From assembly GCF_003334405.1 (NCBI RefSeq), contig NZ_QOWM01000015.1: a stretch of DNA of 64,000 bases; one strand, given 5' to 3'. Origin of the DNA: Escherichia coli (GTDB lineage Bacteria; Pseudomonadota; Gammaproteobacteria; Enterobacterales; Enterobacteriaceae). A program made the position numbers. Positions 26,101 through 29,100 of the stretch are shown one piece after another. How positions within the stretch are numbered: position 1 is the stretch's first letter; every line of letters begins with the position of its first letter.

Positions 26101-29100
26101 GGCCTGCAACAGTGACTTAGGGCAGGGAGCTGCTGTGCGTTCTGCCATCATCAGTTCATTACGGGAAGGCTTCCTTTTATCCTGGCGGCTACTGCCGGTT
26201 ACACCCGTAGTTTCGGTGAGGCCGTGTACTCTCTCCAGCTCACTGATAATCCGTGTGCCGATAAGATTTTCATTTTTCCCCAGGTACAGTTTTCCACCGA
26301 CCATGTTAATACGACTTGCAATGATATGAATATGCTGCCCATCCGGATCATCGTGCATGATATAGCAGCGAAGATGGGTGTCAGTGAAGCCCATTCGGGC
26401 CATATAATCGTCAGCGAATGCTGCCCACTGTCTGTTTGACAGTTTCTCACCCTTTGGCAGGCGAAGTGAATTATGCCAGACAGGTTTGGCGACATCGGGA
26501 CGCAGCAGTCGGGTGCCTTCAAATTCACTTATAAGCTCAGCAGCAGTGCTACCCGTCATGTTGCCACCGATGACATAAGGCGTGATTTTGTGGTGAGAAC
26601 CTGACTTCAGGCTATAAATAACCACACCTGTGAATTGTTTACCCCTTTTTATTTTCTGCATGCCTTTCATGGGTCTGACTCCAGAAATGTTGAGGGAATA
26701 AGGTGATCCCTGAGAGTTTTGATTTGTCTGCGCAGGGCGAAGAGTTCTGTACGGGTCAGTTCGCTGTCAGGGCTTTTGCTGTCGAGATGACTCAACAGGT
26801 AGTTTAAATCCTGTGAAAGGCTGCCAAGTTTTATCCATGCTTCACGATTGATTTCTGGCAGAACCGGCGGGAGTTTATTCAGGGAAGCCATCCTGAGCCA
26901 TTCTCCTTTTTTATACTGACCTCTTTTACTGTCGAGAATAATTAATTCTTCTTCATTTAATCTGACACTGATGCAGTGATGTCGTATTTCATTCTCAGGA
27001 AATTTGTCAGTATGGAATTTACCGCGTTTTGATACTCTGGTTATATCATCATCATTACTCATGTCACTGTTCATAGTTATCCTTTTATTTCATGTTTATT
27101 ACTACAGATAACCGATGAAATGAATAAGTCAAGTTGTTACGGGATAAATAATTTAATTATCTGGATTAAAAAAGGTATACCATTTGACAAATAGTATACC
27201 CACGAGGACATATCAGATTAATGGTCATTAAATGAATCCTTGCAGACTAAGAAAAGGGTTGTTTACTCCAGAGTTTTAGAGTCTTTTTCGTACAGATGAA
27301 CGGGGGATCTCTGGCTTCATTTCTTTTAACAGGTCTTTTTTCTCTCTTGCTGCGATATAAGAAAAAATCTTATCGGAGTCAGAACGCTGTCTGAGTATAT
27401 CGTCGTCCATTCGGATACCATTTCGAATGAACCATTTCACACTTTCTATGCCGGTGTAGATACCAATATGTTTATCATGATAACAATTATAAAACTGAAC
27501 ATGACTGATATCGGTATATTTTTTCAGTGAGGTAAAGAAGTACTTCATGTTTTTGACATATAATGCGAAGGAACAGTGTTCAGCGATAAGGATATTACGC
27601 CCTTTTTCATGAAGCAAAGCAATTAGAGGCAAAGCCTCAGTTGAAACATGTTTAAATAATACTGGCGTGCTGTCTATTCTATCAACATGGCGTTTGAGGG
27701 CATTAATACTGAAATCATATATCCACCACTCGTTGTCAGTCGGAAGATCCAGCACCGCTTTGCCACCATAATCTCTGTGGTTTATGTCACACCCTTTATT
27801 TACCCAGTAATCAAAGACGTCATGATCGAGGAGGTCATAAAGAAGCGTTTGTCCTTCGTTATCTGTGCTGTGGATATCAATGCCCGCGTTTATGAGGAGT
27901 TCCGCACAATCTATGGCGTAGCGCTGCCAGTGAAGACAGGACTGGCCTTTATTATTTTTGTGGTGAACGTTAATACCTGACTTTATCAATAGCCTCACTG
28001 CACGTGGGCTTTTTCTGCTAAACAGGGCATTATTACCATAACAATCTGTATGGTTCAGCGCTATGCCTGCTTCAATCATGGCTTTTAAAGCCCCGATACT
28101 GTCGCAACCGAAAAGGGCGTTTTCACCGTGTTCATTAAGTGTGTTAATGTCAATGCCTGCAGCAATGCAATTCTGGACGTCTTTTTTAGTTTTGCTGTCA
28201 AATAAATTATCTTCTGTATAGTTACTCATGGGCGTTCTCCTTTTTAAGCGGTCGTTTTGTGCCAGGTATTATTGTTGTATTCATATTCTTTTATCTTAAT
28301 GATCTCGTCATAGATCCGTGAAAAAGAAAACCATGAGATCTCTTTCACTTCGCCTTTTTTGTTTGTGTAAATGATATTGCAGCCACGAAAAGAAAATGAC
28401 TGATAGAAAGTATCGTGATTCTCCTCTTTAAGAAAACGGGTAAAAGCTTTTATGGTGTCTTTTTTTTCCATGCTATAAGAGAAAAAGGTATGGATAGCAA
28501 ATATGGTCAGAATATTTCTTTCCGTCACCATATGTCTGGAAAAATAATTAAGATAAAAAACATGATCTTCAATGCTATTTTTACAGAATATTGAAAAGTG
28601 AGGGTTATACAGACGGTAGAGATCTGTATTCTTTTTTGTTTTAGATAGGTAACTTGTCAGGGTTGAATAGTTTTGTTTTTTCATTTTTATTCTCCTTTAT
28701 TATTTTGATGAAATGAATGTATATTATCAAATAAATAAAAATCAAATTTATTTTTAATAATAAAAAATAAGCAAGCGTTTTCTTTTGAATAAACTAATTT
28801 AATGTGATGTTTTATATAAATAAATTCATAGTTTGCAAAAAGTGCTATTTTTATTTCATGGTTGATTGATGGGCGTTTTTCCCCATTGCTTAGGGGGAAA
28901 TATATCCCATTAATATTAAATGTTTGAAGTGAATCGTATTTTAGCAGGGGAATATTATATCTTTTACTTCTGTTTTGATTTTCAACTTTGTGTGTGAGAC
29001 ACAATATGTGATAGTGTTGTGATAATCGTAAGTATCCTGCCAAAACGAATCATTCACTTTAAACCTTTACTGACATATTGGTTATATATTCTGAGAAATT

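Follow-up and report, generated by a model that had tools for sequence, protein, structure and literature searches.

A strict basic C-terminal tag on an ankyrin-repeat protein and other backbone proteins of a mobilizable island at ssrA in Escherichia coli

The 64,000-nucleotide (nt) stretch of Escherichia coli DNA analysed here (assembly GCF_003334405.1, contig NZ_QOWM01000015.1), referred to below as the window, contains a low-GC stretch at about 19–39 kb that forms an island at ssrA in the E. coli chromosome. Judged by its gene content, this island is an integrative mobilizable element of ~20 kb, and the present analysis concerns a two-gene unit on its minus strand together with the short basic tail in which the second gene product ends. 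The first gene encodes a 146-amino-acid (aa) protein annotated in RefSeq as hypothetical (open reading frame 2, ORF2; WP_000744627, 28244–28684), and the second a 317-aa protein annotated as ankyrin repeat domain-containing protein (Ank; WP_000074023, 27276–28229). The two genes are separated by a gap of 14 nt, and ORF2 lies directly upstream of Ank in every island with a mobilization module. An earlier, sequence-only reading had placed both genes in a three-gene operon; the conserved ORF2–Ank pair stands, and the third member does not. This 118-aa frame (28687–29043, minus strand) begins with TTG, contains no Met codon, is absent from the RefSeq annotation, and is cut by stops and frameshifts in 8/8 homologous loci, though the DNA is partly conserved. 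It is AT-rich DNA upstream of ORF2 and not a gene, its terminal codons (AAAGGAGAA TAA) serving as the Shine-Dalgarno sequence of the ORF2 ribosome-binding site. ORF2–Ank is a two-gene operon separate from the mobilization operon, abutting the control region of the latter, which may double as the transfer origin, and sitting across the mobC control region from the relaxase gene. The ORF2 product is an orphan protein with no Pfam, NCBIfam, PHROG, PADLOC or PDB match, belonging to a tiny family of only 21 representatives among 1.84 billion proteins.

Ank comprises ankyrin repeats (residues 1–160), an alpha/beta C-terminal domain (residues 168–304, nt 27318–27728), and a disordered linker carrying the tail (residues 305–317). 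The repeats proposed in the sequence-only reading are borne out by a Pfam Ank_2 match over residues 73–153 (E=5e-6) and by an AlphaFold model (predicted local distance difference test, pLDDT, 91) in which paired helices repeat across residues 1–160. Additionally, among the matches listed, the homologs down to P0070 (E=3.2e-38) all carry precomputed Ank domains, and NCBIfam yields weak matches to Legionella AnkY and AnkH. The C-terminal domain belongs to no known family by Pfam, NCBIfam, PHROG, PADLOC and PDB sequence profiles and has no structural relative outside its own family. The only PADLOC match is PDC-M72A over the ankyrin repeats (3e-8), and no defence or anti-defence match extends past the ankyrin region in PADLOC, PHROG or NCBIfam; the suggested role as an effector, immunity or anti-defence factor thus finds no support in these searches.

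The Ank terminus (...EIPRSSVRKRL) shares its basic VRKRL end with a protein of unrelated body, ORF A (141 aa; WP_001274227, 23630–24055, plus strand; ...PPGSVVRKRL), as had been noticed in the sequence-only reading. The tag codons R-K-R-L occupy 27279–27290 on the minus strand in Ank and 24041–24052 on the plus strand in ORF A. Ank and ORF A are the sole pair sharing a terminal 4-mer or 5-mer among the 129 window ORFs of at least 60 aa, and random internal positions in the same ORFs give a shared 5-mer in 0.65% of trials and a shared 4-mer in 11.6%. ORF A had been regarded as an unrelated island ORF; this holds for its body, and the gene itself proves to be a conserved backbone gene of the same element, lying 3 kb away across the mobC–relaxase module. 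In its product, a variable, Pro-rich spacer links the body to the RKRL tail, and there is no known domain or family match in Pfam, NCBIfam, PHROGs, PADLOC or PDB sequence profiles. The tail recurs on a third unrelated family of the same element type, a 121–122-aa protein first met beside a 412-aa Ank paralog in a Klebsiella locus and unrelated to ORF A by BLASTP (E=14). All three proteins follow a common layout, in which a folded body is followed by a variable disordered spacer of 10–20 residues and a terminal [KR][KR]-R-[LIM]-COOH.

Conservation of this terminus is nearly absolute. Among 119 cluster representatives with an intact C-terminus from the three families (Ank, ORF A and the 122-aa protein), position −2 is Arg in 119/119 and position −1 is Leu, Ile or Met in 119/119, while Lys or Arg occupies position −3 in 118/119 and position −4 in 116/119. 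Ank homologs retain [AS]P[VK]RKR[LMI] down to 30% identity, and the tail of ORF A is kept down to 59% identity, with all homologs that have an intact C-terminus (42/42) ending in [RK][KR]RL behind spacers as different as GSVV, RPGG, RTGR, PIGG and CSGL. Similarly, every full-length homolog of the 122-aa protein ends in N/S-KKR[LI], down to 52% identity and again after a variable spacer. The tag is encoded by cga aaa aga ctc in one gene and agg aaa aga ctg in the other, and its codons also vary between loci, which points to selection on the peptide and not on the DNA. A DNA repeat or cassette junction was considered as the source of the tail and rejected, since the two gene ends are not linked by a repeat, direct or inverted, and use different codons. 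Specificity is high: the fetched loci, about 400 kb with 1070 ORFs of at least 50 aa, give 35 motif matches, of which 34 fall in these families and the remaining one is a plasmid protein. The tail regions are disordered in the models (pLDDT 53–64), and their last 10 residues carry a net charge of +4 in Ank and +3 in ORF A; positive charge as such was rejected as the shared feature, smpB, yfjF and nadK being equally basic. Collectively, the homolog alignments identify the tail as a conserved C-terminal tag under strong selection, carried by three or more unrelated backbone proteins within a single element family, and the earlier suggestion of a common recognition signal appears well founded in view of the tail invariance and the third family. 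Across the contexts in which the tag occurs, no one protein of the island is always present with it, so that its receptor must be supplied by the host or by a helper element. A literature search returned nothing relevant on RKRL as a bacterial C-terminal motif or on ankyrin proteins with mobilizable elements; the element class and ankyrin repeats are already known, and no earlier description of the ORF2–Ank module or the shared tag was found.

Related termini occur on the Ank paralogs, four further classes of which end in KKRL, KRRL or GGRL. The 412-aa paralogs end in CKRRL or SKKRL, the 328-aa paralogs in SKKRL or TKKRL, and the paralog at the DUF6387 end of the islands in KNGGRL or KSGGRL; the ~291-aa clade is the only one lacking the entire 20-residue extension. 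Minimal islands (L009, L018, L019 and also L010) consist of an integrase, a 48-aa ORF, the tagged 412-aa paralog and the untagged 291-aa paralog, indicating that the ankyrin family also travels without mobilization genes. A 42%-identical ORF A homolog in GInt-type islands ends in ...RVRTVRL. A looser basic tail (...NNNADKKM) is found on a 91-aa backbone protein (21210–21485, plus strand) whose paralogs end in RRRKRH or GGKKK, and this family is possibly a fourth tail-bearing one.

Several features define the class of the host element. The island encodes a relaxase and an accessory protein, carries an integrase that adjoins ssrA at the attachment site, and has no type IV secretion, mating-pore or coupling-protein gene annotated between ypjA and ssrA in RefSeq. 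An 8.3-kb segment including the region recurs at ≥99% identity in 76 complete E. coli genomes, in every one on the chromosome. The suspected horizontal acquisition of the genes is borne out by their membership in this element. The backbone is ordered ORF2–Ank, a hairpin, MobC–relaxase, three small membrane proteins or lipoproteins, ORF A and a Rep-like gene, and the island further includes an integrase, a serine recombinase, two ParB-like genes, and AlpA-type and DUF6387 genes. The module ORF2–Ank–MobC–relaxase–p91–lipo132–lipo106–ORF A–Rep187 is syntenic in Citrobacter, Pseudocitrobacter, Kluyvera, Superficieibacter, Phytobacter, a further genome and a metagenome contig. The 122-aa gene is likewise a backbone gene of this element type, located beyond the defence-cargo slot: the order is relaxase–MobC–Ank–ORF2–type ISP restriction enzyme–121 aa in locus L028, and three integrases–ORF A-like–...–relaxase–MobC–OLD+UvrD–122 aa in L030–L032. 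At positions 1–2650 of the latter loci, the mobC–relaxase/ORF A-like backbone is joined to a three-integrase (GInt-type) module and not to the ssrA integrase, indicating that the mobilization module recombines between integration platforms.

Protein identities across loci indicate that ORF2 and Ank evolve much faster than the neighbouring backbone genes. In L015, Ank and ORF2 are 64% and 68% identical to their counterparts, against 86–98% for other backbone genes (MobC 96%, p91 98%, ORF A 92%, Rep-like 93%, and also the relaxase and lipo132), with lipo106 at 78%; in L020, Ank falls to 40% and ORF2 to 60%, all seven other backbone genes remaining at 85–96%. Such divergence suggests that the unit is under diversifying selection or is exchanged as a cassette, as would be anticipated for a module in contact with a variable partner.

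The DNA flanking the unit contains two conserved elements on the minus strand. A hairpin with a T-run (27173–27201; 13-bp stem, 75 nt past the Ank stop) emerges from the terminator scan, its stem being held by compensatory changes in L028, L017/L020 and L004; it is likely the ORF2–Ank terminator, or possibly an inverted repeat of the transfer origin. Just upstream of mobC, alignment reveals an invariant TTGACTTATT...CTGTAG element (27102–27132), the pattern of which occurs once per locus in all 12 of the fetched loci that match (12/12) and in 0 of the other 22, upstream of mobC wherever checked. This element could act as a promoter, mark the nick region of the transfer origin, or do both. Upstream of ORF2, where a single-strand promoter-like structure was sought, folding is only modest (z = −3.1) with no clear long hairpin, and no known RNA family was found in 21000–30400.

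The mobilization genes themselves are IncQ2-like. MobC, a relaxosome accessory protein (26667–27074, minus strand), shares 42% identity with its counterpart on the IncQ2 plasmid pGNB2. The relaxase (25441–26670, minus strand) is assigned to an IncQ2-like MOBP type through profile matches and similarity to plasmid relaxases: it is 43% identical to IncQ2 plasmid relaxases typed as MOBP, its homologs match Pfam Relaxase, and it matches NCBIfam TraI_MobP (3.6e-14) and MobB (1.2e-15) with scores under the curated cut-offs, so that the subfamily call is by similarity only. Within the relaxase gene, a TGGCAC hexamer repeat (25798–25839) encodes a (Pro-Val)n linker, and a much longer run in the distant homolog of L031 indicates variable length. 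Downstream of the relaxase, a 91-aa zinc-ribbon/membrane protein (24980–25255) has a 36% identical homolog (L033, 4499–4771) on the 31-kb Klebsiella plasmid NZ_CP073058. This plasmid also carries DotA/TraY, LPD7, two orphan methylases and three short ankyrin genes, and encodes a 103-aa protein ending in ...TTRKRM; the plasmid could be related to the island or serve as its helper.

Further features surround the backbone. The HTH_36 Rep-like protein (187 aa; 22027–22590, minus strand) lies next to three direct repeats spaced by 49 bp, which occupy 23032–23165 between its gene and ORF A, share the core ...GTCAGTATAAATACGCTTCGCGCA, are iteron-like and may indicate an origin of replication used by the island after excision. 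The Rep-like protein ends in ...RRRNPADGIPF, and its homologs in six other loci all end in P[AET]D[GDS]IPF(D). The C-terminal tip of E. coli SSB reads ...DDDIPF, and by this resemblance the Rep-like tail may be an SSB-tail mimic recruiting SSB-binding host replication or repair proteins. Beside ORF2, the cargo slot at about 29266–33388 contains a DUF4928 pseudogene and a likely defence pair, made up of a NACHT gene and, with its start overlapping the NACHT stop, the gene of a RelA/SpoT-domain protein. Among related islands, that slot is filled in L028 by a type ISP restriction enzyme, and in L030–L032 and L002 by an OLD-family ATPase with a UvrD helicase. By ssrA, at about 34441–39288, lie two tandem ParB/RepB/Spo0J-like genes, a serine recombinase and a tyrosine integrase, an unusual set for an integration end.

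With the tag established, the favoured and still tentative reading, with a probability of roughly 0.3, is that it acts as a C-terminal translocation signal for helper conjugative type IV secretion. The terminal motif would be a portable address tag read by a single receptor encoded elsewhere, namely the coupling protein or type IV secretion system of a helper conjugative plasmid, and a small set of island proteins would be shipped to the recipient along with or before the island DNA. In the recipient, the variable ankyrin surface might bind a protein that itself varies, such as a defence or exclusion factor, and thereby neutralise it, which would account for the fast divergence of ORF2–Ank. 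Translocation is favoured because helper conjugation is the only external machinery on which the element is known to depend. IncQ-type MOB systems are mobilised by P-type systems, and Arg-rich C-termini are the signal of VirB/D4 substrates, the IncQ relaxase included. Recognition of such termini by VirB/D4 systems was reportedly described by Vergunst and colleagues in 2005. Both Ank and ORF A possess the unstructured, net-positive, Arg-containing C-terminus typical of type IV signals. Moreover, conjugative F, IncN and IncP systems translocate many proteins, some via positively charged C-terminal signals, and the last 50 residues of RfaH are necessary and sufficient for its conjugative translocation (PMC11288057).

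Several observations weigh against a translocation signal. The computations provide no direct link from the tag to any secretion system. The VirB/D4 signal consensus is R-x7-R-x-R-x-R, and the tails ...PRSSVRKRL, ...PPGSVVRKRL and ...KQNKKRL do not match it. Known type IV signals are degenerate and defined by charge, a looser pattern than the rigid R-[LIM]-COOH terminus, and the element's own relaxase carries no tag. The motif is also absent from the annotated proteins of the conjugative plasmids R751 (IncP) and R46 (IncN), and the Ank, ORF A and 122-aa families were not found on plasmids or phages; the sole full-length plasmid match of Ank (H21) is a 3.6-kb linear record labelled plasmid and is not counted as a true plasmid-borne relative, and the other plasmid matches are short, untagged ankyrin proteins in unrelated contexts. 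Finally, the 412-aa Ank paralog keeps the tag in the integrase-only islands L009, L018 and L019 and in the mob-less Klebsiella locus L002, into which a cell-autonomous receptor fits more easily. The rigidity, the untagged relaxase, the absence from R751 and R46, and these mob-less loci together favour such a receptor.

The main rival accordingly locates the receptor in the producing cell, where the tag would dock its carriers onto a conserved host machine, the AAA+ unfoldase ClpX being the most concrete candidate. Either a degron of C-motif-2 type would keep the island proteins short-lived, or an SspB-like tether would make Ank an adaptor. Such docking is rather unlikely, with several points in its favour: the C-motif-2 degron of MuA (...NRRKKAI) is similar in character, its very C-terminus consisting of clustered basic residues and then aliphatic ones (PMC12723719); the succession of body, flexible spacer and terminal peptide is that of degrons and adaptors; the invariance of the last two residues is typical of receptors reading a free carboxylate; and the tagged 412-aa paralog in mob-less loci favours a receptor found in all Enterobacteriaceae. 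However, position −2 is Ala in MuA and invariant Arg here, which makes membership in C-motif 2 tentative at most, and there is no evident reason for three or four different backbone proteins to share one protease link. A more elaborate version, in which the tag plugs island proteins into a host AAA+ machine such as ClpX and Ank hands a variable protein of the host or of a rival element, for example a defence factor, to the protease, is improbable; in it, the fast-evolving Ank would be a bacterial counterpart of the poxvirus Ank/F-box adaptors.

The conservation of the tail is equally compatible with binding to some other common partner, such as a host hub, a nucleic acid or a membrane surface, for co-localisation at the relaxosome, nucleoid or membrane. 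This explanation, which is also doubtful, accommodates an external partner, since no island protein accompanies the tag in all contexts; non-specific binding to DNA or membranes would, however, accept Lys at position −2 and need no terminal aliphatic residue, and no candidate partner was found. Far less probable is a role of the tail as a nuclear localisation signal of eukaryotic type, carried by an ankyrin effector directed against a eukaryotic host or grazer. The Pro-x-x-basic cluster and a KK pair 14–18 residues upstream do resemble mono- or bipartite signals, intracellular pathogens have such ankyrin effectors, and the weak NCBIfam matches are to AnkY and AnkH of Legionella. Yet a delivery system is missing, the bacteria concerned are commensal Enterobacteriaceae, the families do not keep the K-[KR]-x-[KR] core (RKRL, KRRL, GGRL), and an extreme C-terminal site with an aliphatic end is no feature of these signals. 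Functionless coincidence, or the remnant of a shared DNA cassette, could draw on the frequency of shared 4-mers at random positions, but it has practically no probability left: the tail is invariant in hundreds of homologs of three families while synonymous codons and spacers vary, no DNA repeat is present, and the absence from homologs that the sequence-only reading had named as the sign of coincidence is the opposite of what is observed. The homolog data refute it.

Defence and resistance genes very commonly travel on mobilizable islands, whose establishment in a new cell is poorly understood. The strict four-residue tag offers an experimental handle on this process, consisting of one peptide, one receptor and one point mutation (Arg at −2). 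If it is an export signal, a hitch-hiking element would ship its own protein set through borrowed secretion, and a sequence rule to predict cargo would follow; if it is a host docking site, it would represent a new type of bacterial short linear motif and a possible protein-targeting tool. In either case, a false gene has been removed, and Ank is recast from an isolated oddity to a variable module of the element. The tag itself is probably a kind of short terminal targeting motif, with a real chance of something less expected.

Among the closest known systems are the defence-carrying integrative mobilizable elements at the E. coli tmRNA hotspot #9 (Hochhauser et al. 2023, PMC10121019). Together with the GInt islands, these elements share the insertion site and class of the present island, with defence cargo between backbone genes; that study catalogues cargo and, so far as searching revealed, does not describe ORF2–Ank or the tail ('ankyrin' occurs 0 times). 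The substrates of VirB/D4 and conjugative type IV systems (Agrobacterium VirF, VirE2 and VirE3, RSF1010 MobA, and the F 'conjutome', e.g. RfaH) resemble the tagged proteins in bearing unstructured, positive, Arg-bearing C-termini on unrelated proteins, and the setting is also alike, the island depending on helper conjugation and encoding a relaxase of IncQ2/MOBP kind. Unlike these signals, the island tag spans four residues with the last two invariant, departs from their Arg consensus and is missing from the relaxase, and transfer of its carriers is here a proposal. The ClpX C-motif 2 of MuA (...RRKKAI) and the ClpX-binding peptide of SspB share with the tag a basic cluster and an aliphatic free end on a flexible spacer after the fold, and the MuA motif differs in register, with Ala in place of the invariant Arg. 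The poxvirus Ank/PRANC F-box proteins and Legionella AnkB combine ankyrin repeats with a short docking module at the C-terminus, through which they hijack a machine of the host. Their modules are F-boxes of ~40 residues acting on eukaryotic ubiquitin ligases, whereas the island carries a four-residue bacterial tag; the likeness lies in a variable ankyrin surface joined to a conserved C-terminal recruiting element, in the mobile or parasitic origin, and in the fast-evolving paralogs.

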